A stretch of 64,000 nucleotides of DNA from an uncultured delta proteobacterium (GCA_963761335.1 CAVXGR010000012.1:480001-544000); one strand, 5' to 3'; positions 18,670 to 35,272 are shown, counted from the first letter of the stretch. A program made the numbers and translations. Notes: a model not told the origin generated them from the sequence alone.

Positions 18670-19698
18670 GTGACGGCAGGCGAATACTTCGAGGCCGTGC
18701 AGGCAGCCTATGCGGACGCCGAGCGGCGCGCCGGCGGGCCGGTGGAGCGCGTGTTTCGCGTCGCCGGGCATCCGCTCCGCCTGCGCTTCGCCGGGCCCGC
18801 CATGGTTTCGGACGCCACCGCCGCCTTCGACCATCTGCCGTCGTCCGGCGAGCGTGCCGAATTCTCCGTGTGTCTGTTCGATAGCGCCTCGACCGGAAGC
18901 GAGCTGCCGCCAATGCCGCGCTCGAGCGGGCCGCACGACGTGCGCGGCGATATTCCCGAGCTGTGCGACGAACGGTTTATCGTCAGCTACTTGCGTTGGA
19001 ACGGGGTGCTCGGCTTGCTCGACCGAAGCCGACGGCGGGCGCTCTTCTGGATTCGTGCCGCGAGCGATTTCCCGTTCAATGAACGCGGCTCGCCACTGCT
19101 GATGAGCCTCCAGGGCTGGCTGGCCGGCCACGATCTGCAGTTGATGCACGCCGGTGCCGTCGGCGGCGCCAACGGGGGCGTGCTGCTCTGCGGCCGTGGC
19201 GGTGCGGGGAAGTCGACCACCGCGATCGCCTGTCTCGTCGCCGGACTCTCGTATGTGGCGGACGACTACTGCGTGCTCGCCGCGCGGCCGCGGCCGGTGG
19301 CCCACAGCCTGTACAACTCCGGCAAGCTGCACTGCGCCGGACTGCACCGGTTCCCGGAGCTGTCCATCGGCGCGGCGTCTCGCGGCGGCGACGACAAGGC
19401 GCTCTTCTTCCTTCACGCACTCTACCCGGAGCGCATGGCCACCAGCGTGCCGATCCGGGCGCTGGTGCTTCCCGTCATCCACGACGGGGCCGACTGCACG
19501 CTCGAGCCCGTGCCGCGCGTCGAGGCGTTGCGCGCCATGGTGAGCAGCACCATCGCCCAGATTCCCGGCGCCAACGGGGGGGTGCTGACCGCCGGCGCGG
19601 CGTTCGTGCGGCAGCTACCCTGCTACCAACTGCGGATCGGCTCCGACCCGACGCGCATCGCCGCGCGCATTGAGGGCCTGCTGCGCGGGGGCATATGA
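18670..19698 (+). CDS. HPr kinase-like P-loop kinase
   Basis: LMHAGAV...GVLLCGRGGAGKSTT...LSYVADD. Confidence 0.85.
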   Translation: MTAGEYFEAVQAAYADAERRAGGPVERVFRVAGHPLRLRFAGPAMVSDATAAFDHLPSSGERAEFSVCLFDSASTGSELPPMPRSSGPHDVRGDIPELCDERFIVSYLRWNGVLGLLDRSRRRALFWIRAASDFPFNERGSPLLMSLQGWLAGHDLQLMHAGAVGGANGGVLLCGRGGAGKSTTAIACLVAGLSYVADDYCVLAARPRPVAHSLYNSGKLHCAGLHRFPELSIGAASRGGDDKALFFLHALYPERMATSVPIRALVLPVIHDGADCTLEPVPRVEALRAMVSSTIAQIPGANGGVLTAGAAFVRQLPCYQLRIGSDPTRIAARIEGLLRGGI

Positions 19699-20813
19699 AG
19701 ATCCTCATGGCCACCGAGCGGTTCCTCCCCGAGGTCGGCGGCGTCGAGGTGTTCACCGCTCGACTCGCGTCGGCGCTGAAGGAACGCGGCCACGAAATCG
19801 CTGTCGTCACCTCGCGCAGCGGACTCACCGAATGCGAGGAGGACCGCCAGGGAGCTGTGCCGGTGTACCGCCTGCCGTTCGAGGCCAGCCTGCGCGCGCG
19901 CGACTACAGACGCGTCATCGCCCTGCGCCGGCGACTCGCCGCGCTCAAGGAGAACCTGCGTCCGGACGTCGTGCACCTCAACACGTCGGGGGCGAGCCTG
20001 CTGTTCCATCTGCTCACTCGCCGAACCGCGCCTGCTCCCCTCGTCCTCACCGTCCACTGGCTGCCCAATTCGGAGAGCGTGGCCGTGGTCTGCGCCCAGG
20101 CGCTCGCCGCGGCCGACTGGATCGTGGGGGTAACGCGTGGATGCCTGGACGAGGCCCTGCTGCTCAATCCGACCATCGCCAACCGCTCATCTGTCGTCTA
20201 CAACAGTCTGCCGCCCATCACTCTCTCGCCCACACCGCTTCGCTTCGATCCGCCGAAGCTGCTCTGTCTCGGCCGGCTCGAGGCGCAGAAGGGTTTTGAC
20301 GTCGCGCTACACGCCCTGGCCGAGGTGTGCCGGCACTTCCCGACGGCGCGGCTCACGGTCGCCGGCGATGGCACCCAGCGTCCGGCCCTCGAAAGCCTTG
20401 CCATCGAGCTCGGCCTGACGGCCGCCGTCCGCTTCATGGGTTGGGTCGCGCCCGACGACGTCCCTCAGCTGATCAACGAGCACACCGTGGTCGTGATGCC
20501 ATCGCGTTACGAGCCTTTTGGTCTGGTGGCGCTGCAGGCGGCGCAGATGTGCCGGCCGCTGGTGGCATCGCGCATCGCGGGACTGTCGGAAGTCGTCCGC
20601 GACGGCGATACCGGCCTGCTCTGCGACGCCAACGACCCCGACGCATTCGCCGCCGCGATCAACGTCCTGCTTCGGCAACCAGCCGCCGCCGCGCACATGG
20701 GCCAGCGGTCACGCAACTACGTCGAGACGGCCTTCCGCTGGGACCAGCAGGTGAGCGCCTATGAGACCCTCTTCCGCAGGGTCCACGCCCAAGCCAGCGG
20801 TCCGTACGCCTGA
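19695..20813 (+). CDS. Family 4 glycosyltransferase
   Basis: GGVE, GRLEAQKG, PSRYEPFGLVALQA, GLSEVVRDGDTG. Confidence 0.92.
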   Translation: MKILMATERFLPEVGGVEVFTARLASALKERGHEIAVVTSRSGLTECEEDRQGAVPVYRLPFEASLRARDYRRVIALRRRLAALKENLRPDVVHLNTSGASLLFHLLTRRTAPAPLVLTVHWLPNSESVAVVCAQALAAADWIVGVTRGCLDEALLLNPTIANRSSVVYNSLPPITLSPTPLRFDPPKLLCLGRLEAQKGFDVALHALAEVCRHFPTARLTVAGDGTQRPALESLAIELGLTAAVRFMGWVAPDDVPQLINEHTVVVMPSRYEPFGLVALQAAQMCRPLVASRIAGLSEVVRDGDTGLLCDANDPDAFAAAINVLLRQPAAAAHMGQRSRNYVETAFRWDQQVSAYETLFRRVHAQASGPYA

Positions 20814-20987
20814 GCGCCTCTGGCCAGGAAGCGCACGATGAAGACCTGGCGCTGGTGAGCAACGAGCGCCTCTCGGACGCGCACGGAGTGCGCCGGATCT
20901 GGCGATGGCGATAGCGCAATAGACCCCTTCTCCGTGCAGGTCCGGTATACCCGCGCGCCACTGGTCTTCCCACCCTGCTAAATGGCC

Positions 20988-21414
20988 GGGCGCCGCGTGC
21001 ACGCGCGCACGGCGCTCGCGCAGCAGCGTCTCGTACGCCACTTCCTGCGTCAGTGGGTGCTTGAATGTGTACTCGGCCACTGGGTAGAGCGCCTGCTCGT
21101 AGACGAACTCGGCCTGTGCCAGGGTGCGCAGCGCGGCGGGCACGTCGGTCGCGGCCGCGTCTCGCGGCGCGACGTCGGCGAGCACCTGCGTCAGCACCGG
21201 CTCGCTGAGCTCCTTGCCGATCACCGCAGCGGTCTGCAGCACCTGCTTCTCGCGCTCTGCCAATCGATCGATGCGTGCCGCCAACACGGCGTGCACGCTG
21301 GCGGGGACGTCGAGCGTCTTCGAGCTCGAACTGCCGGCGCAGCACGCGCAGCGACACGCGGCCGTTCTCCTGCAGGTGGTTCCGCGCTTCGCTGATGATC
21401 TCGAGCAGCCTCAT
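20988..21414 (-). pseudogene. Chimeric remnant of cyclase/ATPase/TPR paralog
   Basis: MRLLEIISEARNHLQENGRVSLRVLRRQFELED joined out of frame to VPASVHAVLAARIDRL...YTFKHPLTQEVAY, then truncated. Confidence 0.75.
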
Positions 21415-24400
21415 GACGTCGATTCCGACAACAGGAGGGAAATGCGTTGCGCCTGCAACGGCGCGCCGATCTGTTCGTAAAGTTGATGAGATTCGCGCAG
21501 CAACTGCACGCGCGTCGCGTCATCGCCGAGGAGGGCTGCCAGCTCGGCGCGCCACTCGCAGAGCGCGGGCGCGAGTGTCTTCGCTCCCGTGCGTTCGATC
21601 AGTGCGGCTGCGCTGGCAAGGGCAGCTTCCGCGGCATCGCGGGCCGCCGCTCCGTCGCGGCGGAGGAGGGCGCGCGCCATGATGCCGTGGGCCTCGGCTT
21701 CGGCGTGGCCACCCAGCGAGCGTCGGCAGAGCGCGATCGCCTCCTCGGCCGCCGCCAGCGCGGCCGACAGATCACCGGCTTGCAGCAGGGCCCAGGCCAA
21801 AAGCATCGCGGAATCGCCCGCAGCGTGCTTTTCCACACGCCCGCAGATCTCCAGGGCGGCACGCGCCGGCGCGATGGCGTCGGCCGCCCGCCCCGCCGCG
21901 AGGTGTGCGCGGGCGAAGGCAAACTGCGCGTACCCGGCCAGCGACAACGGCTCCCCCAGCTTGCGGCCGATCTCTTCGAGCTGCCGCGCGCTGGTGAGTG
22001 CCCGGTCTGCGTCATGAGCGTTGTGGTAGGCCGCGGCCGCCACGACCATGGCGTACCCGATCAACTCCGGTGTGCCGTCCTCCTCGAGCAGACGGCGGGT
22101 GCGTGCGAGCGCTTCGAGCCCCTCCGGCAAGCGGCCCACCCACGTGAGGCAATAGCTGCGCCAGAACGAGAGCAGGGAATAGGGATTGAAGCCAATGATC
22201 CATTCCCCGGAAGGAATGTGGCGCGGAAAGCGAGCAAGCGCTTCCTCCGCCATCTGGAGTGCCTCGGGGAATCGTGCGGCAAAGCTGAGCGCGTCGACGA
22301 GGTAGACACAGGCATTGGCCTGCATCCCAACGTCATCGATCTCGAGTGCCACGCGCCGGTTCTCGATTGCCACCTCGAGATACTCCGCCACGTCGCCGTC
22401 GCCACAGCGCGCGCGGCCATAGACCATCGACAGGCTCAGATGGGCGCGGCGATCGCCAATCGCGTTGGCGAGGGTCTGCCCTTCCTCCAAGAGGGCCTTC
22501 GCCTCGTCGAGCCCCGTGCCGACCCGCCAGCTCCCGTTCAGCAGCTGCATACAGGCAACGATGCCGAGGGCGGCTGCCTCGTGGTCGTCCGGTAGCTGAC
22601 GCAAGAGCTTGCGCACTTGGCCCCAGTGGTGAGTTGCGGCGGCAAAGTCGGTGCGCCCCACCCACTCGGCCGCGCGCCGGTGCCAGCGCGCCCCGCTGAG
22701 CGCCTCGCCGGCCTCCTCCCAGTGGTGCGCCAGCAGCGCCGCGCGTTCGTCGAGATGGTCAGGGTCGTGCAGCTCGATCGCCCGCGCCACGGCGGCGTGC
22801 ACCTGACGGCGACGCTCCTTGAGCTGGCTGCCGAGCGCCACTTCCTGGGTGAGCGGATGCTTGAAGGCGTACTCAACGACCGGATAGATCGCCTGCTCGT
22901 GGATGAACTCGGCACGGCGCAGAGCCGCGAGTGCGGCCTTCAGCTCTTCGGTGGGTAGCTCCGCCACTGCCGCCAGCAACGGCTCGGGGAAGTCCTTGCC
23001 GATCACCGACGCCACTTGCAGCAGCCGCTTCTCGCGCTCCGGCAGCCGGTCGATGCGCGCCGCCAGTACCGCCTGCACGGTGGCCGGCACCGTGAGCTCC
23101 TCGATCGGCGTCACCAGGCGATACGCACCGCGTTCGCCTTCGAGATGCCCCGACTCGATGAGTGTCTGCGCTACCTCCTCGGTGAAGAACGGGTTGCCGC
23201 CGGTACGCGCGTGGATCGGCGCCGTCAGGGCGGCCAGGCTCGGGTCGGTGCCGAGCAGATCCACCAGCAACTCGCCGATCGCGTCGCGCCCGAGCGGCGT
23301 CAGCGGGATCTGCCGGTACCACGACTTCTGCATCCAGTCGGCGCGGTGCTCGGGGCGGAAGTTGAGCAGCAGGAGATTGCGGCTGCCGGCGCGCGCGTCG
23401 ACCATGTGCTCGAGGAACTCGCCGCTCGCATCGTCGAGCCAGTGCAGGTCCTCGACCATCGTCACCGTCGGCTGCTCCTCGCTGACGCTCTGGATCACCT
23501 GACGCATCACGGCGATGATCTGGCGCTGGCGCGCCTCGGGGTCGAGCCGCGGCGCCGGGCGCTGCGAATCGGCGACGCCGAGGAAATCGAAGAGCAGCGG
23601 CAGCGCGTCGGCAAAGCTGTTGTCGAGCAGCACCATGCGCCCGGCGATCTTCTCGCGCGCGCTGCGATCGTCGTCCTCGAGCGTGATGCCGTAGTAGGCG
23701 CGGAACACCTCGAGGATGGGTAGGAAGGGGATGTTGCGGCCGTGGGCGACGGCGCGGCCCTCGTAGACGTGCATGCCGCGGGCGCGGCAGCGCTCGAGGA
23801 ACTCGAAGCACAGGCGACTCTTGCCGGTGCCGGCATCGGCCACGATCCCCACCACCTGGCCGTTGCCCGCCGCAGTCTGCTCGAGCGCATCCTCGAGCGT
23901 GCGCAGATCGGCGGCGCGCCCGACGAAGCGCGAGAGGCCGCGGGCGCGTGAGATGTCGAAGCGCGAACGCGCGGCGCCGATGCCGACGAGGCGGTGGACG
24001 CGCACCGGCTCCGCGACGCCCTTGACGCGAAAGTCGCCCAGATCCTCCAGCGCGAAGTAGCCGCCGGCGAGCGCCGCCGTCGCCGCCGTAAGGTAACACG
24101 AGTCCGGCGAGGCGAGCGCTTCCATCCGCTGTGCCAGACCCACCGTGTGGCCCTGCGCCGTGTAGTCCATGCGCAGGTCATCGCCGATCTTGCCGACCAC
24201 GACCGCGCCCGAGTTGATGCCCATGCGGGTCGAGAAGCCGACGCCGTGCTCGCGCTTCACCTCGGTGGCGTAGCGGGCGATCTCGTCGCGCAGATGCAGC
24301 GCCGCGTAGCAGGCGCGCTGGGCGTGATCCTCGTGGGCGATCGGCGCGCCGAAGAGCGCCATGATCCCGTCGCCGGTGTACTGGTTCAGGGTGCCCTCGA

Positions 24401-24839
24401 AGCGGTGCACGCCTTCGGTGAGGATCTGAAAGAAGCGGTCGAGGATCGTGTGCCACGCTTCCGGGTCGAGCTGTTCAGCGAGTTCCATCGACCCTTTCAC
24501 GTCGGCGAACAGAACGGTGACCTGCTTGCGCTCGCCTTCGAGAGCGGACTTCGATTGCAGGATTTTGTCGGCGAGGTGTTTGGGGGTGTAGGCGCGAGGA
24601 CTGCTGCCAAGTCGAGAGTCGACAGTCGAGAGTCGAGAGTTTTCGACCTTCCCATTTTTGACTGTAGACTGTTGACTGTCGACTAGATTCACGCCGCACT
24701 CGCCGCAGAACTTCGCACCGGAGGGCAGGTTGCTACCGCAGCTCTCGCAGCGCCGGGCGATGGGCGTTCCGCACTCGAGGCAGAACTTCACCCGCTCGGG
24801 GTTGACGTTGCCGCAACTTGCGCAGTTCATGGGAGTCAC
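21411..24839 (-). CDS. Double zinc ribbon - class III adenylate/guanylate cyclase - ATPase - TPR protein (intact)
   Basis: Four CxxC; ERKQVTVLFADVKGS; TGDG; Walker A ADAGTGKSRL; EDLHWLD; GGNPFF; helical-repeat C-terminus. Confidence 0.92.
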   Translation of the reverse strand: MTPMNCASCGNVNPERVKFCLECGTPIARRCESCGSNLPSGAKFCGECGVNLVDSQQSTVKNGKVENSRLSTVDSRLGSSPRAYTPKHLADKILQSKSALEGERKQVTVLFADVKGSMELAEQLDPEAWHTILDRFFQILTEGVHRFEGTLNQYTGDGIMALFGAPIAHEDHAQRACYAALHLRDEIARYATEVKREHGVGFSTRMGINSGAVVVGKIGDDLRMDYTAQGHTVGLAQRMEALASPDSCYLTAATAALAGGYFALEDLGDFRVKGVAEPVRVHRLVGIGAARSRFDISRARGLSRFVGRAADLRTLEDALEQTAAGNGQVVGIVADAGTGKSRLCFEFLERCRARGMHVYEGRAVAHGRNIPFLPILEVFRAYYGITLEDDDRSAREKIAGRMVLLDNSFADALPLLFDFLGVADSQRPAPRLDPEARQRQIIAVMRQVIQSVSEEQPTVTMVEDLHWLDDASGEFLEHMVDARAGSRNLLLLNFRPEHRADWMQKSWYRQIPLTPLGRDAIGELLVDLLGTDPSLAALTAPIHARTGGNPFFTEEVAQTLIESGHLEGERGAYRLVTPIEELTVPATVQAVLAARIDRLPEREKRLLQVASVIGKDFPEPLLAAVAELPTEELKAALAALRRAEFIHEQAIYPVVEYAFKHPLTQEVALGSQLKERRRQVHAAVARAIELHDPDHLDERAALLAHHWEEAGEALSGARWHRRAAEWVGRTDFAAATHHWGQVRKLLRQLPDDHEAAALGIVACMQLLNGSWRVGTGLDEAKALLEEGQTLANAIGDRRAHLSLSMVYGRARCGDGDVAEYLEVAIENRRVALEIDDVGMQANACVYLVDALSFAARFPEALQMAEEALARFPRHIPSGEWIIGFNPYSLLSFWRSYCLTWVGRLPEGLEALARTRRLLEEDGTPELIGYAMVVAAAAYHNAHDADRALTSARQLEEIGRKLGEPLSLAGYAQFAFARAHLAAGRAADAIAPARAALEICGRVEKHAAGDSAMLLAWALLQAGDLSAALAAAEEAIALCRRSLGGHAEAEAHGIMARALLRRDGAAARDAAEAALASAAALIERTGAKTLAPALCEWRAELAALLGDDATRVQLLRESHQLYEQIGAPLQAQRISLLLSESTS
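24611..24685. repeat. Heptamer-repeat hairpin within coding linker
   Basis: gtcgaga/gtcgaca units facing tgactgt/agactgt/cgact units; encodes VDSQQSTV...SRLSTVDSRL. Confidence 0.75.
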
Positions 24840-25042
24840 TCGAGCCCGGCCTGTCGCAGGGCGGCGTTTCGGCGCGCGTCGATCTCGGGGCGCGAGACCC
24901 CGATGCCGCGCTGAAACAGCTCCAGCGACACACGCGGCTCGACGCGGCGCGCTTCGCTGGCGGCTCCTGGCTTGATCCCGAGCCGATCACAGAGGCTCTT
25001 GGGGATGGTGACCTGACCTTTCTCCGAGACGATCGCCTTCAT
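24836..25042 (-). pseudogene. AbrB/MazE antitoxin N-terminus fused to an unrelated C-terminal fragment
   Basis: MKAIVSEKGQVTIPKSLCDRLGIKPG followed by ...RRNAALRQAGLE, which resembles the tail of TPR-type cyclases. Confidence 0.65.
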
Positions 25043-25051
25043 ACTCGCGCT

Positions 25052-25078
25052 GTAGGAATTCCTTACTTCTCGAGTCAA
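25052..25078 (-). promoter_or_regulatory. Putative -35 box and palindromic operator of AbrB module
   Basis: TTGACT followed by quasi-palindrome GTAAGGAATTCCTAC just upstream of ATG 25042. Confidence 0.45.
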
Positions 25079-25159
25079 TTTCGGGGCCTCCCTGGTGGTG
25101 AGCTTGTGATGGCACCGCAAGACTGGGTGTGTCGCTGGACAGGCCCCCCGAAGCTCCAC

Positions 25160-25765
25160 TCACTCGACCGGGCACGGATCGAGGCGCAGGGAGACGGCGG
25201 TTTCCCTGGCCTCGCGGGGGTACAGACCGATTGCAGCGGCGCCCCGGGCCACCGCGTACTTCTCGACCTTGAGTGCGTGGATCGCCTTGACGGTCGCGCG
25301 GTCTTCGTAAAGCACCGGCACCACGCACCGGGTCTCCCCATTCCGGAGGAGCTGAAGGCGCGCTCCATCCAGAGAGTGCTCGACCGCCTTCGAACGCGCC
25401 ATCCCCACCCACTCACCGTCTTCGCGGTCGACGATCCAGAGGCGTAGCTCCGCCGGTTCGCCGGCGCTATCGGTGGCATAAAGCGACACCACTTCTTCGA
25501 GCTCGGCCATCGTGGCGTAAAGCCCGAAGAAGAGCACCACGGGGCTGGCCGCCAGTGCCAGCCAGCAGAGCCCGCGTGGCGTCGCGGGCCACACCAGCAC
25601 ACCGCCGAGCAGCAGCGCACCCAGGCCACCGAACAGGTTCGCGCCGCGGGGCATCGGGTAAGGGCCCTCGTGGTGGAAGCGAACTGCGAAAACGGCGACG
25701 CCGAGGGCAAGGAGCCCGCAGCCAACTATGGTTTGGACCTTGGAAGACGAGCGGGGTTCCATCAC
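25160..25765 (-). CDS. Membrane-anchored hypothetical protein
   Basis: Three hydrophobic segments followed by soluble domain (LRLWIVDREDGEWV...KVEKY); codon pattern fits genome. Confidence 0.65.
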   Translation of the reverse strand: MMEPRSSSKVQTIVGCGLLALGVAVFAVRFHHEGPYPMPRGANLFGGLGALLLGGVLVWPATPRGLCWLALAASPVVLFFGLYATMAELEEVVSLYATDSAGEPAELRLWIVDREDGEWVGMARSKAVEHSLDGARLQLLRNGETRCVVPVLYEDRATVKAIHALKVEKYAVARGAAAIGLYPREARETAVSLRLDPCPVE

Positions 25766-25911
25766 GGGGCTCCTCCAGAGAGACAGTTCATGGTGCCAGT
25801 GTCGTGTCCGATGATTGCGGGCGCAGCTCCCCGAAGCGCGCGAGGGCCTCGTCCAGCGCGTTCATCTCGAACAGCTCGATACGCGTGAGGCGTCCCTGCG
25901 CGACCAGGGCC

Positions 25912-26346
25912 TCATTCGATCACGATGGCGGTCAAACCGAGAGCGCCCGCTCCGCTCCGCTGATGCGTGTCGTGGGTGTGAACCTCGGTAAAGCCTTGCT
26001 GGAGGGCCGTCACCAGATGCAGACAATCAGCCGTGCGCAGGAAGACGTTCGCCGGCAACGTGGTCAAGGTCCGAACCACCTGTTCGATGATACGGCTGTC
26101 GAGAGGAACCCAGGTCCAGTAGCCGACTGCCTCGTCTGTCGAGAATTGGCTCACGACAGTCGCAAACTCATCTTGGCTCCACTTCCGCTCGCGCAATTGC
26201 CGGTGAAAGACGGCGACCAGCTCCGCTCTCGCGAGCTCCGAGAGCAGCACCTGATCTTCGGCGTCGAGGCGGGCACGGACAGCGTCGGATTCCGACTCCC
26301 GCGCGTAATACCTTGCGAGAGTCGACGTGTCGCAGAAGAGCATCGT
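25912..26346 (-). CDS. VapC-like PIN domain toxin
   Basis: FCDTSTLARYY..E, SELARAEL, LRTADCLHL, THD. Confidence 0.88.
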   Translation of the reverse strand, partial: TMLFCDTSTLARYYARESESDAVRARLDAEDQVLLSELARAELVAVFHRQLRERKWSQDEFATVVSQFSTDEAVGYWTWVPLDSRIIEQVVRTLTTLPANVFLRTADCLHLVTALQQGFTEVHTHDTHQRSGAGALGLTAIVIE

Positions 26347-26600
26347 CAGCGGTCGGAGCGTACGGCGTCGAGACTCTCCAGGATGTCCGACGCCTTCCGC
26401 TGCGTGAGAAAGGTGACGTACTCCGGCAGGAGCGTCCGCTGCCGCCGTCGGGTCGTCGGCAAGTTTGGCGGAACGAGTGCGGCGACCACCTTGCCGCGAT
26501 CGGTGACCGGCAGCGGGGTTCGTGCCCTCCCGGCCCGGCGAACGTATTCGCCGGTCCTGGCGTGCAGCTCTTTGATGGTGATCGAACCCTTTTTGGCCAT
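26346..26600 (-). CDS. Phd/YefM-family antitoxin
   Basis: ITIKELHARTGEYVRRA...VTDRGKVVAALVP; directly upstream of PIN gene. Confidence 0.85.
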   Translation of the reverse strand: MAKKGSITIKELHARTGEYVRRAGRARTPLPVTDRGKVVAALVPPNLPTTRRRQRTLLPEYVTFLTQRKASDILESLDAVRSDR

Positions 26601-26601
26601 G

Positions 26602-26616
26602 GTGTCACTGTGTCAC
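26602..26616 (-). promoter_or_regulatory. Direct repeat GTGACAC x2, possible TA operator
   Basis: gtgacacagtgacac abuts the antitoxin start codon. Confidence 0.4.
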
Positions 26617-26714
26617 TTCCAAAAGAGGTAGGCAAGCGGCTCCGGAGTCGAATGACACGCGGCCGTTCTCTTCGAGGTGGCGGCGCACCTCGCGGTCGAC
26701 GTCGAGGAGTTTCA

Positions 26715-28545
26715 TTACGGCAACTCCGCCAGCAACCCTGCCACGCGCTCGGCATGTCCCGTCGCGCCCATCTCCTCGAAGAGGTCCTGGGCTTCGATCA
26801 GCAACTTGCGGTGGCGGATCGAATCGGAGAGCAGGCCCGCTAGGCGCGCGCGTGCGATTACCTGCCGCGTTTCACGATTCTCGGTTGCGCACGATCGGCA
26901 ATTCACCGCCTCACGACTCGAGGTCCAGCACCAGCCGCTCCGCCGGGTCCGGGGCACCCATGGCGCGGTACATGGCCTCCCCGTTCCCGCCTGGCGCCCA
27001 CTGGCCAGGCAGTCGGTCAGGCGTTCTTCACAGGCCGCATACTCCCCGCTCAAGAGCGAGGCGAACGCGAGATTGCTGGACGCGGTGATCTGCGAGTAGC
27101 GGGTGCCGACGGCGGCGGCGATCTCGACCGCCTCGGCAGCGGCGCGTAGCAGGTCGGGAACTACCGCTCCGGATGTCCCGCGGCCGAAGTAGCCGACGAT
27201 GCTCGGCGTGCCGAGCACCCAGGCGAGGTTTTCCTGCATCGCGTGCTCGCGGGCCAGCCGGAGTGCGCGATCCATCCGCGGCCAGCACTCGTCGAAGCGG
27301 CCGGCCTGGGCGAGCGCGATGGCGGACACCTGCTCCGCCCAAACCAACGGGCTGAAGCTGACGATCTCGCGCCCGACCCGCGGATCGCCCTCGGTCCGGT
27401 CCACAATCCGATCCAACACCACGAGTGCGTCCCGAATTCGCCCGGCGACGAGACTCCAGTAGGCGGTCGTAACGTCGATCGCGAGGATCTCGCCGCGTCC
27501 CAACGTGTGGTCGACGAGACCGGCGCATTCCGTGGCGACATCGAGAGCTGCTTGGGCGCGTCCGAGCACGCCGTAGTGGCCGGCAACGCCGACGAGCAGA
27601 TTGGCGACGGCGGCGGGACGCCTCAGCTCCCGGGCCAGTGCGCGGCCCTCGTCGAGCGCCGCGCGCACATCCTCCTCGCTCATGCCGAGGCGCCAGCTAC
27701 CGCCGGCCAGGACGGCGCGGCAGGCGCGCAAGCACGCTTCCTTGCTGGGCTCATCGGGTAGCCCGCGACCCAGCTCGCGCACCTTGGGCAGCGGTGTGCG
27801 CCGTGAGGTACACCTTGCCCGGCTCGGCGATCTGTTCCATGCGCGCCGCGAGCCCGACGGTGTGTCCCTGCGCCGTATAGTCCATGCGCAAGTCATCGCC
27901 GATCTTGCCGACGATCACCTCGCCGGAGTTGATGCCCAGGCGCGCCGAGAAGCTGAGCCCACGGCGCAGGCGCAGCTCGTTGGCATAGCCGCGCAGGCCG
28001 TCCAGCAGGTGCAACGCCGCGTAGCAGGCGCGGCGCGCATGATCCTCGTGCGTGATGGGCGCACCAAACAGCGCCATGATGCCGTCGCCGGTGTATTGGT
28101 TCACCGTGCCTTCGAAGCGGTGCACGCCTTCGGTGAGGATCTGGAAGAAGCGGTCGAGGATCTGATGCCATTCTTCGGGATCCACTTGCTCCGCGAGCTC
28201 CATCGATCCCTTCACGTCGGCGAACAGGACGGTCACCTGCTTGCGCTCGCCTTCGAGGGCGGAGCGGCTCTGTAGGATCTTCTCCGCGAGATGGCGGGGC
28301 GTGTAGGAAAGGGGGTTGGAGGTTACGGGGTTGGGGGTTGGGGAAGATCCAGAATCCCCTAACCCCGAGCCCCCCAACCCCTTGACCCCTTGCAGTTGCG
28401 CGCCGCATTCGTCGCAGAACTTTTGACCGGCCGGATTTGTGGCGCCGCACGACGAGCAAACGGGCTCGCTCACCAGCGACGTCGCACAAGCGCCGCAGAA
28501 CTTGGCGCCCTCTCGATTCTCATGCCCGCATGCCGTACAACGCAT
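26715..28545 (-). pseudogene. Zinc ribbon-cyclase-TPR paralog with ATPase region deleted
   Basis: N-terminal part is highly similar to 21411-24839 up to YLTAHTAA, then jumps out of frame (~27790) to the TPR region, ending LFEEMGATGHAERV. Confidence 0.8.
28311..28389. repeat. G-rich/C-rich short-repeat hairpin in coding linker
   Basis: ggggttg-like units facing aacccc-like units; encodes GVKGLGGSGLG...PTPNPVTSNP before YTPRHLA. Confidence 0.7.
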
Positions 28546-28603
28546 CTTACTGCTCCCCCTTCCCCCCTAACAACATAGCAAACCCCCTTCGGTCATCGCA
28601 CCC

Positions 28604-30200
28604 TCACTCGCCGACCTCCTCGCTGAGGCGTCGAACGTGCCCCGTCGCGCCGACGTCGCGATAGAGCTCGAGGGCTCGGCGCAGCTGCGACCGCGCCTCC
28701 TGCTCGTCGTTGCCCAGCGCCGCCAGCCGGGCAAACTCCTCAGCCACGAGCGGCGCGTAGGCGCGCGCACCACTTTTCTCGACCAGGCGATCGGCGTCCC
28801 CGAGAAGCGCTGCGATTCGCTCGCTCGCGGCGGCGCCGTCGAGGGCGCGGAAGACGCGGGATTGCGAGATGCGGGCGCGCAGTAGATTGGTCCACGCGTC
28901 GGGAACGAGGATCGGCGCCTCGGCCATCTCCCGTGCGCGCTGCTCCTGTCCGACGGCGAGATACGCCTCCGCGAGCACGCCGGTCGTGAGATCCGTCCAG
29001 CCGCGCGCCTGCTTTCCCACGATCTGCTGGTGTCGGGCCCGATCGAGGGTTGTGACAGCCTCGTTCGCGAAGCCGTGAAGCAAGCTACCCGAGGCACCTA
29101 TCGCCTGGCGCAGGCGCTGGACCGCCATGGCGAGCGTTGCCGCCTGCTCGACCTTGCCGTCTTCGAGCCAGGCCAGGGCGATTTCTTCGTAGGCTTCGGC
29201 CATGAGGTGGGGCACGAGCGCATGCTCCTCCCCCAGGTCGATGGCCTGGTGAAGCGAGCGGAGCGCCGCCTTCCGGTCCCCGGGACTGCAGTACAAGCCA
29301 CGCCAGAGGCGAGCCCCGATCTCGACGGTGAGAGCGACGCCCGCCGCGGCCTCGATGGCCTCGTCGAAGTAGCGGTCGGCGCCGTCGAGATCACCTCCCA
29401 CGGCTGCGGCCTCGCCCTGCAGGAGGATTGCCCATGCGATGAACGCTGGGACGCCAACCTGCCGCGCCGTCTCGGCCACCTCGGCCGCCCGTTCAGCTGC
29501 CCGCTCGGGCTCGACGGCCAGCTGCGCCTCGCGCACTAATCCGCGAATCGCCATCGCTATCACCGTGTCACCCGACGCTTCCGCCAGCTCGATGCCCCGC
29601 TGCCCCTGTTCGATCGCCGCCGCGCAGCGCCGCGAGGCGGGCGCGCTCCTCCACCAGGCGCGGCAGGAGTGAGCGCGCGCTCGTCTCCTCGATGAGCACG
29701 GCGGGGCGCGGGTCCTCGCCCTGAAAGGGCGGGACCGGGCCCGCGGAATGAGCGATGCGGACACGGTCACCCACCGCCCAGGTGTTGACCTCGCTCCGCG
29801 GCTCCGCGCGCAGGATCTCCTCGGCCTTCGCGAGGGCCGCGCGCGCCTCCTCAAGCCGCCCCATCTCGCACAAGGCCTGCGAGCGGGAGTGCCAACTCTG
29901 GCTCCAGCCCGGGAAACCCATGGTTGCGAGTCCCAGCTCGTGGTCGCCTTCCGACCATCGGAGCAACTCCTCGAGGTGCGCGAGGGCCTCCGGATATCGC
30001 GCCAGACAGTGCGCGCTGTAGGCGCCGACAACGCGTGCATGTGCGTGGGTCTCGGCAGACATGCCGTCGTCCAGCAGCGCACAGGCCTCGGTGCCCAGGG
30101 CGTGGAAGCGACGCGCGTCGCCAGGGTTGCCGACGAAAATCGCCCAGTACGAGAGCAGCCGGACCTCGCGCTCGCGATCCGATGCGGCGCGAACGATTGG
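28604..30200 (-). pseudogene. Mosaic of several orphan TPR C-terminal fragments
   Basis: Frame-switching helical segments; two copies of the EExARLAAL tail motif; ends LYRDVGATGHVRRL. Confidence 0.7.
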
Positions 30201-30251
30201 GTCGACACGGAGCCCAACTTCGAGCGAAACTCCAAGCTTCTTTCAAAGGGC

Positions 30252-31964
30252 TCACTCGCCGTCGCCCTCCAACAGGCCGTATTTTCTCGCGAGGTCCATA
30301 TACACGTGTGTCCACGATACTTCAGGGACTTTTCCGTAGACCCGGCGCATGCCGGCGATCGTGTAGTGAGGATTCAATTCCCGGATCTTGTGTATGCATT
30401 TCTCGGCTTCATCCGGACGGCCGTCCAACTCATACGCCAAAGCGAGCGTTAGGTATTGGGGGATAAAGTCCGGCGCCATATCTGCGGCATGCCTCAGATG
30501 TGACAAGGCGTCCTGCAATCGCCCCCCGAACAGATACGCACCGCCTAGGCTGGCATAACCCGTCCACTCATGGGGATCGACGCGGACCGCCTGCTCGGCG
30601 AAGGCGATACCTTCGTCTATTTCACCGAGTACCACCAGCGGGACCGCAAAGTGCGCGAGCGCGGTGGGATCGTTGGGATTGAGATCCACGGCCCGACGGC
30701 CGTGATCGCACGCTTCGTCCATGCGGCCTTCGATCGTGCGGAAGAGGCAGAGGACCGCGTGCGTGTACGCATCGTCTTCCTTGAGCGCAAGCGCTTTCTC
30801 CGCCAAATCGATTGGCCGCTGCAGATCCGTCGAGCGCTGATGGAAGAAATCTTCCCACAGCACCCGCGCGAGACCGGCATAGGCGAGACCGAAGTCCGGA
30901 TCCAGAGCGATCGCTTTCTCGAACAGCGCCCGCGCCATGCGAAGACTTTCCGGCGTAAACGTGACATGTAATGCGCGGGCACGGAGATAGAGCTCGTGGG
31001 CCGCGCGGTTCTCTGTGGGTAGGTCTTGCACTCGCTGGCGCTCGCCTGCGGTCAGGCTGACACTCAGGGCTTCGACGATTTCTAGCGTGATCTCGTCTTG
31101 CAGGGCGAAGATGTCCGTCAACGTCCGGTCGTATCGTTCCGACCAGAGGTGGTGGCCCGACCATCATCACCGACTTGTCGAAGGTGAGCGGTCTCCTGGT
31201 CATCGCCCGCCACTCATCATTCACCTACAAGGGGAAGAACGTCGACATCGCCACCGTGGCGCGCGAGCTTCGCGTTTCACATGTCGTGGAAGGAAGTGTC
31301 AGGCGTGTGGGCGATCGCGTGCGCATCACGGCGCAGCTGAAGGCGCCACTGATGCAACCACTGGGGCTGGGTTTGGCTCGCCGATCCTTACCAGATAGGC
31401 ACGAACGGGCTGGGGAATATTCTTCAGGGTGTGTTCACCCAAGTCCGTCGCGTTGAGGGAGAGTTTGTTTCGCACCTGCGCATAAACGGCGTCGGACAGA
31501 CAGAGGGCTCCGGCTTCTCCCAAACTTTCGAGGCGGGCGGCGATGTTGATGCCTTCGCCGTAGAGCCGATCATCTTCTATGCGGACGTCGCCCAAGTGTG
31601 CGCCTATGCGGAACCGGACTTGACGGTCGTCGGGGAGGTCGGCGTTGTGTGTCTCCACTTCGACCTGGATAGCGAGGGCGCACTCAACAGCTTGCAAGGC
31701 ACTCGGAAATTCGGCGAGAAAGTTGTCGCCGACGAAGTCGGCCAAGCCCTTCATGGTTCGCGGGGTTCCGGGTTCGGGGTTCGACCATCTCTGAGCCCTG
31801 GAACTTGAACCCGCGCGCAGCACCGTGCCGCAGCCGTTGCAGAACTTTGCGCCGGGTGGGTTCTCGGTTCCGCAGGCGGCGCACGATGCGCCAAGCGGGG
31901 AGGCGCACTCATTACAAAAGCGCGCGCCCGTGGGGTTCTCGTGTCCGCAGCTCGGGCGATTCAT
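30252..31964 (-). pseudogene. Chimeric zinc ribbon + class III cyclase + TolB-like + TPR gene with internal inversion
   Basis: CGHENPTGARFC; GDNFLAEF..RIGAHLGDV..GEGINIAARLE; HLWSERYDRTLTDIFALQDEI; middle segment 31162-31340 lies on the + strand. Confidence 0.8.
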
Positions 31965-32567
31965 GAGGAGAGAGTCCCCGCAAGCAGCCGCTCCGCGTGC
32001 TCCGATGCACCGATCTCGACGTAGCGAGCGTGCGCGCGGCGGAGCTCTTTGGCCTCTGCGTCGTGGTCGCCTCGCAAGGCCGCCAGACGGGCGTGCTCCT
32101 CGATGATCTGCGGCTCGAGCGTATGCCCCCCGGTCTCGTGTACCAGGGCGAGCGCGCGGGTGAGACAAGCCTGGATCTCTCCGGCGGCACGGGCGCCCGG
32201 ATCGGCGTGAAGTGCCCGCGCGAGAGCGAGCTGACCCATGCATTGGAAATAGAGTGCACCCTGTTTCTGTGCGCAGGCAATCGCTTCTTCAGCCGTGGTC
32301 CGGGCTCGCTGTGCCTCACCTCGACCTAGATACGCGCGCGAGAGGTCGGCAAGCATCGAGGCCTCGGCGTCCAGGTTGTTCCGCCTCGCACGCGCCGTTG
32401 CCAAAGACCATTCGAGAGCGCCCGCGGCCTCGGACCAGTCCCCGTGGAGCACGTGTGCCAGGCCGAGCCCGCGGCGTGCCATGATGCGCAAGAGGTTGCT
32501 GCCGTGCTGCTCGGCGATTTGTTCGGGGACCTCGCGGGCCCGTTGGAGCTTGTCGACAAAACTCATC
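31961..32567 (-). pseudogene. Short paralog N-terminus fused in frame to an orphan TPR C-terminus
   Basis: MSFVDKLQRAREV joined to ...EEHARLAALRGD...YVEIGASEHAERL. Confidence 0.65.
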
Positions 32568-32712
32568 GGGGCTCTTCTTGGCGCCACGTTTCCAGTACAG
32601 GGTTTTCGCGGCAGGCATCCTTGCCCGAAACCGCGCCCGAAAGCGAACGGTGAAGCCTCTCGTGCCCGTGGTACATCAAGGCGGCGATCGACGTGATGCT
32701 GTCCCGCGGCGT

Positions 32713-33159
32713 CTACGCCGGAGTCCCCAGACTCACCTGCACGACGGGTGCACGGACTAATGGAGAAATGATCCCCAGCTTCGGAAAGTAGCTCCGGTAG
32801 CGCGCCGCGTCCCGGGTCAGCAGCTTCATGCCCGAAACGCTGGCGTGCGCGCCGATGTAGAAGTCCGGCAACGGCGATGACCGGATTCCGCCTCGCCTGC
32901 GGTAGGTCAGAAAGCACTTGCCGGCAAGGAACGCGGCTTCCCACGGGAGTGCCAAGCGGTGAAAGGTCCGCGGCGGGAGCGCGGCTTCGATCTCCTCGAT
33001 CCGCACGAATCCGATCGATACCTCTGCATAGATGATCGGGTTGATGGCCAACAGATCCCGGTCACCGTGCTCTGCCAGCGTCTCCATCGACCAAGGAGAC
33101 CAGCGCGGGTCCTCCGTGAGCACGTCGAGGAGAACGTTGCTGTCGACCAGGATCGGCAC
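32713..33159 (-). CDS. VapC-like PIN domain toxin
   Basis: ILVDSNVLLD, NPIIYAEVS, LPDFYIGAHA, LLTRD. Confidence 0.9.
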   Translation of the reverse strand: MPILVDSNVLLDVLTEDPRWSPWSMETLAEHGDRDLLAINPIIYAEVSIGFVRIEEIEAALPPRTFHRLALPWEAAFLAGKCFLTYRRRGGIRSSPLPDFYIGAHASVSGMKLLTRDAARYRSYFPKLGIISPLVRAPVVQVSLGTPA

Positions 33160-33395
33160 TACTTCTCGCCGCGCGTGAGCGCGATGATCTGGTCGGTGGT
33201 CAGACCACTGGTCGCCTTGCCTCTGAGATGCTCAACGATGCTACGACCGCGTCGACGCTTGCGGCCGCCCCGCGCCTTTCTGATCCGTACCGCGGTACCT
33301 TCGACCGTGAACTCCACTTCGCTGTTGGGCAGCAGACCCAGCCGTTCCCGGATCTCGACCGGAATGGTGACTTGCCCCTTCGATGTGACGCGCAT
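33159..33395 (-). CDS. AbrB/MazE/SpoVT-family antitoxin
   Basis: MRVTSKGQVTIPVEIRERLGL. Confidence 0.9.
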   Translation of the reverse strand: MRVTSKGQVTIPVEIRERLGLLPNSEVEFTVEGTAVRIRKARGGRKRRRGRSIVEHLRGKATSGLTTDQIIALTRGEK

Positions 33396-33638
33396 GACAG
33401 CCTCCCAATGGCAATACTTACATGAGTCTTACTATCGCAGGGCGCCTCGATGCGCGTCAAGCTCGGCGCATCGGGCGCGGTGGTCTTGGCGCCGAGGAGC
33501 GCCGTTCGGGACTACCTGCGCCAGCACCCGGAGGCGGCGCATCTCTCGTCGGGCCGTCGCACCATCGCCTGAGGTTGTCGTCTTGCGGACCTGGAGGCAA
33601 TTGCCGGCCCCTCCGCCGCTGTGGCAGATAGCTGCGAG

Positions 33639-34556
33639 ATGAAACTGCCCTTCATCTCCGCCGCGCCGCCGAAGCCCCTGAAGATCGTCGGCCTCGTTCC
33701 GGCGAAGAACGAGGCCAAGCGGATCGCGAGCTGTCTGCGCGTCCTCTGCCTCTTCTGCGACGCCATCGTCTACCTCGATGACAACTCACAGGACGAGTCG
33801 GCCGCCATCGTCCGCTCGCTCGCCGCAGAGTGCCGCATCGAGCGCATCGTCGAGAAGAAGGACGACGAGTTTCACGAGACGATCCGAAGGGCGACGCTGC
33901 TGCAGGCCGGACGCGAGCTGGGGGGAACGCATTTCATCGTCATGGACGCCGACGAGATGCCGACCGCGGCGTGCCGGCGCGGCGGCTTTCTGCGCCGTCG
34001 CGTCTCGTCGCTGCGTCCGGGAGACACCCTGCAGATGGTCTGGCTCCAGCTCTGGCGCTCCCCGATGCAGTACCGCTGCGATCGGTCGATCTGGACGAAC
34101 CAGTATCGGGGCTGCGCCTTCGCGGATGACCGGCGCTGCGCCTACCCCGAGACTTTCATTCATCTGGACCGTATCCCGGCCGGGCTCTCCGGCCGCGGTT
34201 ACCGCATCCGCGGCGACAAGTACGGCGTCATGCACTTCCAGTTTGCCAACTGGCCCAACCTGCTGGTCAAGCAGGCGTGGTACCGCTGCTTGGAGCGCGT
34301 GAATTATCCCCGCAAGCCCGCCGCGGCGATCAACGCGCTCTACGCGCCGAGCAAAGACGAGCGCGGCCTGCGGCTGCGCCCCGCGCCCTCCGCCTGGTTC
34401 GACGGCTATCCCTTCCTCGACCCGCAGTCCCTGGCGCGCCCGGAGCCCTGGCGTGAGCGCCAGGTCCTCGAGTGGTTCGACCGTTATGGCGCGGACTACT
34501 TCCGCGACCTCGATATCTGGGACATCGACTGGGAAACGAGCCGCCGCAGCAAGTAG
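33639..34556 (+). CDS. Family 2 glycosyltransferase
   Basis: PAKNEA, LDDNSQD, MDADE. Confidence 0.82.
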   Translation: MKLPFISAAPPKPLKIVGLVPAKNEAKRIASCLRVLCLFCDAIVYLDDNSQDESAAIVRSLAAECRIERIVEKKDDEFHETIRRATLLQAGRELGGTHFIVMDADEMPTAACRRGGFLRRRVSSLRPGDTLQMVWLQLWRSPMQYRCDRSIWTNQYRGCAFADDRRCAYPETFIHLDRIPAGLSGRGYRIRGDKYGVMHFQFANWPNLLVKQAWYRCLERVNYPRKPAAAINALYAPSKDERGLRLRPAPSAWFDGYPFLDPQSLARPEPWRERQVLEWFDRYGADYFRDLDIWDIDWETSRRSK

Positions 34557-35272
34557 ACGGCAAGGCCGCTCCAGCCGCGCACTTCGACGAGAAGCTGGGT
34601 CGCGAGAAGACCCGCGGACCGCGGCCGCCGCCCAAAATTCGCGGCGCGGCGCTTCTCGAACACGCGCCTTCCAACGAACCAGGCGCGGAGCTGATTCTGG
34701 TGGCGATACGTGGCGTCGTGCGGGCTCAACCCGACGCTGTAGTGGCGGTGCGGAAACAGCAGCGAGCGGGCGTCGACGAGCGCGCCCTCCCGCGTGGCCA
34801 CCTCAGTGAGATCGTCGTCGGCAAATACCGACAGGTAGCCGGGGTAGTAGAGGTAGCCCAGCCGCTCGTAGAGCCCTCGTCCGACGATCGGCAGAGTCAT
34901 GATGCGGCCGTCGATGCCGTCGTCGACCAGCACCGCGACGTCGCGCCGGCCGGCGATGACATCGCGCAGCGCTGTATCCCAATGCTCCGGGCAGCCGAAG
35001 TCGTCGGAGACGACGATCATCACATCGCCGCCGGTCGAGGGCGCGGCCCGGTTCACGGCACCGACGACGGAGCGATTCGCGCCGATCACGACGCCAACCC
35101 CGCGCCGCGCCGCCAGGGAACGGTACTCATCCAGCGCCGGGTCGCCGGCGTCGACGCTCAGCACGTACTCGCATCCGCTCGGATCATCGCACTTCCCCGT
35201 CCACTCGAGGATCGCGGCCTCGGCCATCGTCACCCGCCCCCGCGACGGATGGATGAGACTGAACCGCAACAC
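34496..35272 (-). CDS. GT-A fold glycosyltransferase
   Basis: SLIHPSRGR, VGAVNRAA, IVVSDDF, FADDDL; start may extend to 35338. Confidence 0.72.
   Translation of the reverse strand: MLRFSLIHPSRGRVTMAEAAILEWTGKCDDPSGCEYVLSVDAGDPALDEYRSLAARRGVGVVIGANRSVVGAVNRAAPSTGGDVMIVVSDDFGCPEHWDTALRDVIAGRRDVAVLVDDGIDGRIMTLPIVGRGLYERLGYLYYPGYLSVFADDDLTEVATREGALVDARSLLFPHRHYSVGLSPHDATYRHQNQLRAWFVGRRVFEKRRAANFGRRPRSAGLLATQLLVEVRGWSGLAVYLLRRLVSQSMSQISRSRK

Follow-up and report, generated by a model that had tools for sequence, protein, structure and literature searches.

The window, that is, the whole stretch of DNA that was analysed (64,000 nucleotides), raises the question of why the minus strand between 20,991 and 33,395 holds one whole sensor-cyclase gene among the remnants of about nine further genes of the same family. 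Also found inside this region are a related cyclase-TPR gene of 630 aa (c630), which an inversion of 183 bp has split, together with two PIN toxin-antitoxin (TA) pairs, an antitoxin stub and a membrane-protein gene. The original prediction was of a recombination hotspot in which conserved modules swap variable sensor tails and trap cargo. The analysis suggests instead that the region is probably the deletion debris of a longer head-to-tail sensor-cyclase array, produced by ordinary birth-and-death turnover; a new mechanism is not revealed by the locus.

All pieces were placed with a family profile built from 86 full-length relatives, with E-values of 1e-141 to 1e-6, a similarity far above chance. 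The family features of the region are listed here:

20991–21320, minus: orphan ATPase/winged-helix fragment from a zinc-ribbon-type paralogue (profile 562–665, iE 1e-50)
21316–21414, minus: winged-helix-type head after P1, 33 codons, in ATGA overlap with the P1 stop
21411–24839, minus: P1, the only intact family gene, with double zinc ribbon, class III cyclase, AAA_16 STAND ATPase, TPR sensor and conserved tail
24840–24964, minus: upstream module of P1, duplicated in a second fragment cluster (24766–24964 is 92% identical to C12:546996–547194)
26654–26715, minus: winged-helix-type head stub, 62 bp, about 20 codons, its ATG overlapping the preceding stop as TAATG
26715–26885, minus: tail2, C-terminal tail of another gene, TAA stop at 26715–26717 (profile 1068–1119, iE 2.4e-6)
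26897–26979, minus: tail1, last ~24 codons of the G/F1 ancestral gene, after a second deletion, in a third frame
26985–27791, minus: F1, TPR domain beginning at its first residues, in a different frame from G (profile 721–983, iE 3.4e-34)
27751–28545, minus: G, zinc ribbon and cyclase cut at profile 238, ORF stop 12 codons past the joint (profile 1–238, iE 4e-141)
28604–29674, minus: H2, 5'-truncated TPR and complete tail (profile ~872/957–1119, iE 1e-20 and 6e-8)
29568–30242, minus: H1, 5'-truncated TPR in its own frame (profile 773–924, iE 5.7e-16), then a weak tail start (iE 2.7e-3)
30252–31160, minus: TPR part of c630 (Pfam TPR_19, TPR_2 and TPR_1, 1e-13 to 4e-15)
31163–31345, plus: inverted middle of c630, 183 bp, TolB_N-like region
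31329–31964, minus: front of c630 (a ~630-aa cyclase-TPR gene), zinc ribbon and cyclase, its ATG sharing ATGA with the K stop
31961–32566, minus: K, ~17 codons of winged-helix-type head joined to the final ~190 residues of a TPR domain and its tail, open ORF of 201 aa

P1 was found to be intact, as predicted, by both Pfam and the profile. Its Pfam matches include DZR (1.6e-10), Guanylate_cyc (PF00211; 3e-21, residues 104–277) and AAA_16 (5.5e-23, residues 304–491), and a Walker A motif (GTGKS) is visible in the translation, in the ATPase placed right after the cyclase. No HTH family was detected among its eight Pfam matches. The TPR matches in Pfam are weak (TPR_12, 6.6e-4; TPR_10, 1.2e-3; both below cut-offs), and the family profile aligns with the whole TPR region of about 400 residues, as does TIGR03903 (TOMM kinase/cyclase fusion). 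P1 more likely starts at the ATG at 24830, the point from which the family profile matches, and a relative in L029 is 80.5% identical over its full length. A palindromic stretch in the P1 linker was considered as a mobile repeat and rejected, as the genome has no second copy. If P1 works as STAND proteins generally do, ligand binding to its TPR domain would permit ATP-dependent oligomerisation, which would pair the cyclase domains into active dimers and give a cyclic-nucleotide signal.

By eye, P1 has a Gln at the position of the canonical adenylyl cyclase substrate Lys, as in Rv0386. An excerpt of one source gives the Rv0386 group the order class III cyclase, Walker-A ATPase and then TPR, and mentions a Gln-Asn pair (10.1101/2024.03.06.583649). 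So far as that excerpt goes, P1 follows the same order as this group (M. tuberculosis Rv0386, Rv1358 and Rv2488c), namely class III cyclase, MalT-type P-loop ATPase and TPR. The C-terminal LuxR HTH of the mycobacterial proteins is absent from P1, whose family carries double zinc ribbon or winged-helix-type heads, and unlike the Rv0386 group the P1 family, a branch known here from sequence, lies in translationally coupled tandem arrays. With TIGR03903, P1 residues 99–1090 align to model positions 280–1257 of 1267 (E 9e-82), which is the cyclase-ATPase-TPR body; the score of 275.5 bits is far under the cut-off of 705.75, and the kinase part (1–279) is unmatched, with no Pfam kinase domain present. 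The P1 cyclase also matches the PycC models of PADLOC (best E 1.4e-19), reflecting the generic class III fold only, at the strength of PF00211. Pycsar requires a gene for a cNMP-activated effector next to the cyclase. No adjacent small effector gene is found at this locus, which is surrounded by family fragments, TA genes and a membrane gene without PADLOC match, and P1 differs further in its fused STAND ATPase and TPR. As PADLOC gave only these generic PycC-like cyclase matches, a reading as a defence system was not adopted, and no feature of the locus ties it to phage defence.

Besides that of P1, five heads were detected by the profile search, winged-helix-type at 21414, 26654–26715 and 32566 (ATG) and zinc-ribbon at 28545 and 31964; the original prediction had listed four of these, with 32566 as about 32567, and had missed 26654–26715. 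Six C-terminal tails were found, that of P1 included. The predicted tail ends at 21411, 26715, 28604 and 31961 are all present, with an extra tail at 26897–26979, while the partial one expected near 29620 corresponds to a match at 29607–29702 that is weak (iE 2.7e-3). New starts do overlap previous stops, as ATGA at 21414 and 31964 and as TAATG at 26715. Intact arrays in relatives hold two to five genes (L010 and L039, four to five; L079, four), and 20 of 53 boundaries from tail to zinc-ribbon head overlap by 4 or 1 nt. The ancestral state of the region would have been such a head-to-tail array of paralogous STAND-type genes, translationally coupled via 4-nt stop/start overlaps, with each gene comprising a small head, a class III nucleotide cyclase, an AAA_16 P-loop ATPase switch, a TPR sensor and a conserved tail. 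Non-homologous deletions, frameshifts and a single small inversion would then have reduced about nine genes and the neighbouring c630 to fragments, with P1 spared, leaving heads, tails and partial TPR domains end to end with two PIN TA pairs and a membrane gene in the gaps. The pieces would be non-functional, and the deletions are presumably recent.

Deletion is the preferred reading because G, F1 and tail1 are colinear with one gene, their joints show microhomology only, the frame is broken and no recombinase or repeated site was found. The gene in question lies in L085, onto which the three pieces map in order. The DNA of G is 85% identical to L085 8269–8781, with the match ending at 27785 and the Pfam cyclase covering 6–156 of 183; F1 is 57% identical to residues 722–989 of the L085 gene, and tail1 shares 18 of 24 residues with its C-terminus (DNA, 85.5%). 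These are the only two joints comparable with parent-like sequence. The G/F1 joint has a 2-bp microhomology and is out of frame, and the F1/tail1 joint has ~0–1 bp, with the frame also changing. Both are non-homologous deletions with 0–2 bp of microhomology.

The 393-aa ORF 26715–27896 holds three separate pieces, the 543-aa ORF 28604–30235 is made up of H1 and H2 in different frames, and ORF 20659–21414 is a 33-codon head joined to the ATPase fragment in another frame. This head (21316–21414) shares 79% identity with that of the gene following P1's relative in L047, and the ATPase fragment is 85% identical to L039 residues 560–661, compared with 58% to P1. K (profile 931–1116, iE 6.8e-35) has its best relative in L039 (residues 920–1116, 57%). 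The 5' module of K (32519–32597, 32601–32657) is 96–97% identical in DNA to C12:557405–557615 in inverted orientation, and the head stub is 93.5% identical to a gene start at C12:556351–556412. The 5' modules of the two clusters are 92–97% identical, which shows recent homologous exchange, so that not every event was an illegitimate deletion. The long open frames across fragments are artefacts of high G+C content; ORFs K (201 aa), F, G and H keep such frames, which tell little either way in DNA of 68% G+C. For annotation, only one of the ~10 family ORFs here deserves gene status.

The breakpoints differ between pieces (profile 33|562, 238|721, 983|~1100 and 17|~931, with 5' truncations at 773 and 872), and no reuse was found across genomes, where they lie at 693|880, 100|959, 187|409, 53|1014, 779|1065, 203|809 and 238|721; this outcome comes close to the refuting condition set in the original prediction, random decay without reused breakpoints. 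Loss of the ATPase middle is the expected product of any internal deletion. Neither a recombinase nor a reverse transcriptase was found among the 25 flanking ORFs scanned in the window, and the junctions carry no recurrent direct or inverted repeat and no repeated target site of a shufflon, DGR or invertase-type system; all that appeared was homology between paralogues and short chance matches rich in G+C. An Rfam search gave no match.

Everything lies on the minus strand except for the one small inversion that had been predicted, now placed at 31163–31345. The front of c630 (Pfam Zn_Ribbon_1, 2.9e-12; Guanylate_cyc, 1.3e-6) is 52% identical to L076 residues 58–191, the inverted middle is 59% identical to L054 residues 267–325 and the TPR part is 37% identical to L016 residues 225–514. 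Re-flipping the inverted segment restores the family order, with ~75 residues before it missing. Inverted repeats at the inversion are limited to chance-level arms of 10–17 nt, none of them at its ends.

The genes lying between the pieces are the following:

24965–25042, minus: AbrB/MazE antitoxin stub, first 26 codons only (Pfam MazE_antitoxin 8.8e-5, positions 3–25 of 48)
25160–25765, minus: membrane-protein gene, 201 aa
25912–26600, minus: TA pair 1, Phd/YefM-like antitoxin (26346–26600) and PIN toxin (25912–26343)
32713–33159, minus: PIN-domain toxin of TA pair 2, 148 aa (Pfam PIN 4.3e-7)
33159–33395, minus: AbrB/MazE-type antitoxin of TA pair 2, 78 aa (Pfam MazE_antitoxin 5.9e-11)

Two TA pairs, a broken AbrB gene and a membrane gene had been predicted as cargo; Pfam and coordinates bear out the pairs and the stub, the membrane gene is present, and the TA pairs do sit between the pieces. 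TA pair 1 (PIN, 4.9e-13; PhdYeFM_antitox, 2.5e-5, under its cut-off) is 90% identical in DNA to G013:C329. The AbrB and PIN pair recurs directly upstream of a full-length family gene in L029 and beside family fragments in L086. Both pairs fit a type II (VapBC-like) layout, with a small antitoxin gene before a PIN toxin in overlapping or adjacent ORFs. The membrane gene had no match in Pfam, PADLOC or NCBIfam, and homologues 85–90% identical adjoin family genes in L031 and L078; a blastx match at 63.5% was rejected as lying in a shifted frame, the correct identity being 85%. It should also be noted that the region is flanked by glycosyltransferase genes, which have no matches beside arrays elsewhere.

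A mosaic of this kind might also be an assembly artefact, with paralogues or strains collapsed into a chimeric contig. The genome comprises 29 contigs and resembles a metagenome bin, and elsewhere in the window an H+-pyrophosphatase gene is broken into two ORFs, a split that indel errors might explain. Read support comes from short, low-depth Logan contigs; run X1, which may be the source sample, accounted for 0.36 of the words sampled and every other run for 0.16 at most. Contigs from X2, X3 and X4, 93–99% identical, stop fitting at 26979, 27785, 27783, 29694 and 30196, which are mapped breakpoints, and near-identical contigs of other runs diverge exactly at four junctions; one from X3 (93%) fits H1 only over 29694–30196. 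The third-position share of differences is 2 of 6 for F1 against X2 and 10 of 21 for H1 against X3, counts too few to separate selection from neutrality. Among the 32 contig pieces listed (3,122 others were not), none spans 27786, 26982, 21316, 32519 or either end of the inversion. Against an artefact, X1 contigs independently bridge two junctions (26601–26873 and 31740–32010) without difference, and local paralogues are only 79–85% alike in DNA. De Bruijn assemblers mis-join only with long shared words, and the joints, which share only 0–2 bp with parent-like sequences, therefore speak against mis-assembly. The same kind of debris is seen in five other genomes, and a collapsed assembly is considered very unlikely.

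The locus itself is absent from all compared genomes of the same family or order. Comparable debris was found in relatives L078, L079, L081, L086 and L088 and in the second cluster (C12:544445–558314). A fixed-rule count gave one full-length gene against five abnormal junctions in this region, one of the five being a false call inside c630 and another possibly a TPR register ambiguity; the same rule gave 70 full-length genes, 33 normal boundaries and seven abnormal junctions for the other loci pooled. Among the 86 full-length relatives, 73 pairs have an ATPase identity of at least 78% with a TPR identity of at most 35%, and the change-point of identity lies at P1 residues 707–745 (720–739 in 61 of the 73). 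Close cores show a bimodal TPR identity, the trees for ATPase and TPR disagree, with the TPR data rejecting the ATPase clade (AU p 7e-41), and N-terminal heads swap too. The swapping of sensor tails claimed in the original prediction is thus supported for the family, whose conserved cores have traded TPR domains at a single hinge near residue 727, but not for this locus itself. A conserved P450 neighbour with a cyclic-nucleotide-binding domain (here at 45953–47926) was also seen to recur beside the family.

With this hinge in mind, the fragments could be viewed as a silent reservoir of sensor cassettes, from which gene conversion transfers TPR and tail pieces to the intact gene. F1 begins ~14 residues past the family-wide hinge, every orphan TPR differs in type from that of P1, and the tails, somewhat more conserved than the TPR body (0.33–0.43 vs 0.20–0.30), could serve as a 3' anchor. 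However, the conserved ATPase end needed for a 5' crossover is absent from all orphans, K, H1 and H2 begin within the TPR at different positions (931, 773 and 872), and heads and the ATPase fragment are retained as often as tails, as predicted for random deletion. Together with the broken frames, the varied breakpoints, the 0–2 bp non-homologous joints and the failure to find a recombinase or repeated site, this makes such a reservoir very improbable, and the part of the original prediction that cast the local pieces as swap cassettes does not hold. Orphan cassettes of polymorphic toxins, as far as an excerpt of PMC3482391 describes them, have in common variable C-termini on a conserved body and leftover C-terminal pieces downstream or nearby. 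The local orphans, of which only K is an open fusion, differ in having no toxin/immunity pairs, no upstream homology block, varied internal starts and broken frames; N-terminal and middle pieces are also left behind here, and F1 starts at 721, after the hinge.

Some truncated products might still be functional: K or F, consisting of TPR alone, could act as a decoy or regulator of P1, and G could be a free cyclase. K is fused in frame, has its own start and carries a 5' module that was copied recently and includes 31 bp upstream of the start, and head-plus-tail mini-genes recur (L079, 2–100|959–1117; L088, 2–53|1014–1119). A large deletion in a tandem array gives head-plus-tail by geometry alone, though, and G lacks ~30 residues at the end of the cyclase fold and then meets a stop, while no plausible start in frame with a head exists for F itself; functional products are accordingly considered unlikely. 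Clusters of NLR/STAND genes in plants and fungi consist of tandem paralogues in which a conserved NTPase core is paired with variable repeat sensors, domains are shuffled and truncated copies are numerous. The P1 family shares tandem paralogues, NTPase core, variable sensors, shuffling and truncated copies with these clusters, but it is bacterial, uses a nucleotide cyclase as effector and exchanges its sensor as one unit at a single hinge, and it shows no link to immunity. Such clusters evolve by birth and death; a source on the fungal ones is PMC4986451. That the arrays are a bacterial counterpart of these clusters with a built-in means of diversification, with TPR modules moved at a fixed hinge, truncated pieces as donors and a cyclic-nucleotide output read by the P450 neighbour, is unlikely.

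Read as deletion debris, the locus and its relatives show clearly how a bacterial family of STAND sensors turns over by birth and death. The measurable result is that TPR domains and N-terminal heads are exchanged whole at fixed boundaries while the cyclase-ATPase core is conserved. This exchange and the recurring P450 neighbour provide testable handles on a very large cyclase family that is apparently unstudied in the literature.

Pieces of the STAND-type sensor cyclase family were placed by a profile search of all six frames of window 19,000–35,000, combined with tblastn and blastx. The profile was built from 86 full-length members from the loci of relatives and from the genome itself (G000; 6.26 Mb, 29 contigs, ~68% G+C; the window is C12:480001–544000), with duplicate loci left out. 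The stop/start overlaps of the locus were read directly in the sequence. The array of family pieces described in the original prediction was confirmed by profile, BLAST and overlaps, and on this placement its feature list was right, with one head and one tail to be added. Three of the long ORFs of the locus were composite.

Features of the locus, from right to left (profile positions are those of the 86-member profile)
33395–32713, minus: TA pair 2, AbrB-type antitoxin and PIN toxin
32566–31961, minus: K, ~17 winged-helix-type head codons fused to TPR 931–1116 including the tail
start 31964, minus: c630, a 630-aa-type cyclase-TPR gene, sharing ATGA with the K stop
31964–31329, minus: c630 front
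31163–31345, plus: inverted piece of c630, between front and TPR part
31160–30252, minus: c630 TPR part
30242–29568, minus: H1, TPR 773–924, then a weak tail start
29674–28604, minus: H2, TPR ~872–1119
28545–27787, minus: G, profile 1–238
27791–26985, minus: F1, profile 721–983
26979–26897, minus: tail1
26885–26730, stop at 26715, minus: tail2
26715–26654, minus: head stub, 62 bp
26600–25912, minus: TA pair 1, Phd-like antitoxin and PIN toxin
25765–25160, minus: membrane gene
25042–24965, minus: AbrB stub, 26 codons
between AbrB stub and P1, minus: upstream module, 125 bp
21411–24839, minus: P1, ORF of 1,142 aa
21414–21316, minus: winged-helix-type head, 33 codons, sharing ATGA with the P1 stop
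21320–20991, minus: ATPase fragment, profile 562–665, sharing 85% identity with an L039 gene of the zinc-ribbon type

P1, the sole intact family gene of the locus, is likelier to start at the ATG at 24830. Pfam E-values were 1.6e-10 for the double zinc ribbon, 3e-21 for the class III cyclase and 5.5e-23 for the AAA_16 ATPase; the TPR hits were weak. By eye, Walker A and both metal-binding aspartate motifs are kept. A genome-contig search confirmed 571 relatives, the nearest full-length homologues lying on contigs of MAGs with the labels Candidatus Binatia, Deltaproteobacteria or Myxococcota; the source is therefore probably an uncultured member of that group from soil or sediment. A gene at L029 is 80.5% identical to P1 over the full length. 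An imperfect 24-nt palindrome with heptamer-like repeats (24617–24684) lies within the zinc-ribbon/cyclase linker, where it is translated through as protein. No second copy was found elsewhere in the genome, and many contigs of sequencing run X1 have loose ends at 24608–24640.

Comparison with one gene from the relative L085 indicates that G, F1 and tail1 are one ancestral gene with two internal deletions, as they map in order to 8781–8269, 6814–6011 and 5674–5592 of that locus. At the G/F1 joint the parent-like sequence is followed to a common CA, after which the window resumes ~1.45 kb onward; this joint shifts the frame and G therefore ends 12 codons past it. The F1/tail1 joint has one or two bases in common at most. 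One in-frame stop interrupts the reference gene (L085:5609–8977, minus), whose frame also changes locally close to the ATPase start. The remaining junctions differ in position (33|562, 17|~931, 5′ ends at 773 and 872), and no repeated site recurring at junctions was found. c630 lacks ~75 residues, and no inverted repeat was found flanking its inversion. The 25 flanking ORFs scanned were glycosyltransferases and other housekeeping-type genes, with no recombinase, transposase or reverse transcriptase among them. It should also be noted that 75 bp just past the glycosyltransferase stop (20831–20905), for which there was no Rfam match, recur at 79–83% identity, in opposite orientation, upstream of family genes of two other genomes (G004, G023).

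X1, possibly the source sample, covered 26601–26873 and 31740–32010 with zero differences, its contigs bridging the tail2/stub/TA joints and the K/c630 overlap; the main joints were spanned by no contig among those listed. Contigs of the runs X2, X3 and X4, 93–99% identical, stop fitting at 26979, 27785, 27783, 29694 and 30196, which coincide exactly with mapped breakpoints. Mis-joins in the assembly would also produce such ends, but joints with just 0–2 common bp are not a typical product of word-based assemblers and would not be expected on that explanation. The ends are consistent with lineage-specific deletions.

Head-to-tail arrays of two to five full-length genes were found in relatives (L010, L039, L033, L047, L079), the 630-aa cyclase-TPR gene being a frequent member. 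Zinc-ribbon genes are often directly trailed by genes with the winged-helix-type head. Successive tail-to-zinc-ribbon-head boundaries overlap by 4 nt in 19 of 53 cases and by 1 nt in one. Family debris was also present in L078, L079, L081, L086 and L088. The overlaps and common tail motif described in the original prediction are thus inherited family traits. One fixed rule gave one full-length gene, two normal boundaries and five abnormal junctions in the window (one a false call inside c630, one possibly a TPR register ambiguity), against 70, 33 and seven in the remaining loci pooled, which are biased to intact genes because they were selected by full-length similarity to P1.

A second family cluster lies just right of the window (C12:544445–558314, or to 558581), with a cyclase|TPR joint without ATPase (203|809). 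Besides three zinc-ribbon stubs it contains a single diverged gene with the winged-helix head and, facing outward, a copy of the 5′ module of K. It is adjoined by an ORF (C12:558921–559946) resembling, by eye only, an IS200/RAYT-type transposase.

Among the 86 proteins, median pairwise identity was 74% for the cyclase, 62% for the ATPase and 26% for the TPR. When the 310 pairs sharing at least 78% identity in the ATPase were considered, their TPR identity was bimodal (≤35% in 73, 35–40% in one, the others mostly 45–65%), although pairs are not independent events. The change-point of the 73 low-TPR pairs fell at P1 residues 707–745, and within 720–739 in 61 of them. Conversely, among the 397 pairs whose ATPases are less than 50% identical, 37 had TPR identity of 40–65%. 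With 30 chosen sequences, an 18-member ATPase clade (SH-aLRT 95) was rejected by the TPR data (delta lnL 376, AU p 7e-41) and a 12-member TPR grouping by the ATPase data (p 0.036); these groups were named after the identity tables had been seen, and the trees came from quick searches and contain long branches. Heads are also swapped, an L010 gene having a zinc ribbon and its L047 counterpart, 89–93% identical, the winged-helix-type head. In some members this alternative head, ~60 aa long, stands in place of the zinc ribbon (L047:13357–13650; window 21316–21414, 26654–26715, 32519–32566); its only weak Pfam match, a FeoC-like winged helix (E 6e-4), narrowly misses the cut-off. The TPR bimodality, change-points, tree conflict and head swap therefore argue that whole-module exchange at fixed boundaries is real within the family. 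Within the window, recent homologous exchange is indicated solely by short 5′ modules, 92–97% identical between both clusters.

TA pair 1 (25908–26641) and the membrane gene (25127–25813) show 90% and 81–89% DNA identity, respectively, to genomes of other genera of the same taxonomic order. Both probably move horizontally, as this far exceeds most family-gene matches there (67–76%; 81–83% in the two closest relatives). Elsewhere in the window, an H+-translocating pyrophosphatase is split into overlapping plus-strand ORFs (58489–59253 and 59250–60650; profile positions 2–210 and 231–645 of 645), being either a frameshifted gene or an assembly indel error. In a single 1,130-aa ORF (52674–56066, plus), a radical-SAM activase-like domain is fused with a glycyl-radical enzyme of the pyruvate-formate-lyase-like kind.

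TIGR03903 is alignable to P1, but P1 scores far under its cut-off and has no kinase; the mycobacterial Rv0386 group has a LuxR HTH absent from P1, and the PADLOC match is limited to the generic cyclase fold. The available portion of PMC7159879 describes cNMP cyclases in conflict systems and not these arrays, and a limited search found no publication dealing with tandem arrays of this STAND-cyclase family or with exchange of its TPR. By analogy with known STAND proteins and class III cyclases, the TPR of P1 would bind a ligand, ATP-dependent oligomerisation would come next and would lead to cyclase dimerisation. A cytochrome P450 fused at its C-terminus to a cyclic-nucleotide-binding domain (45953–47926, minus; Pfam p450 2.8e-28, cNMP_binding 1.3e-13) is the sole P450 in the genome matched across the cNMP part. 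Full-length homologues, 78–85% identical, adjoin family genes in six other regions among ~80 loci (L026, L060, L085/L004, L080, L064 and L005, the last cut by the locus end), which suggests a possible reader or receiver of the cyclase signal.

The original prediction, a recombination hotspot with swapped sensor tails, is partly supported: modular exchange holds in the family on identities, trees and heads, while a role of the fragments here as cassettes is not supported. The locus is one of paralogue birth and death, unusually rich in fragments and otherwise ordinary.
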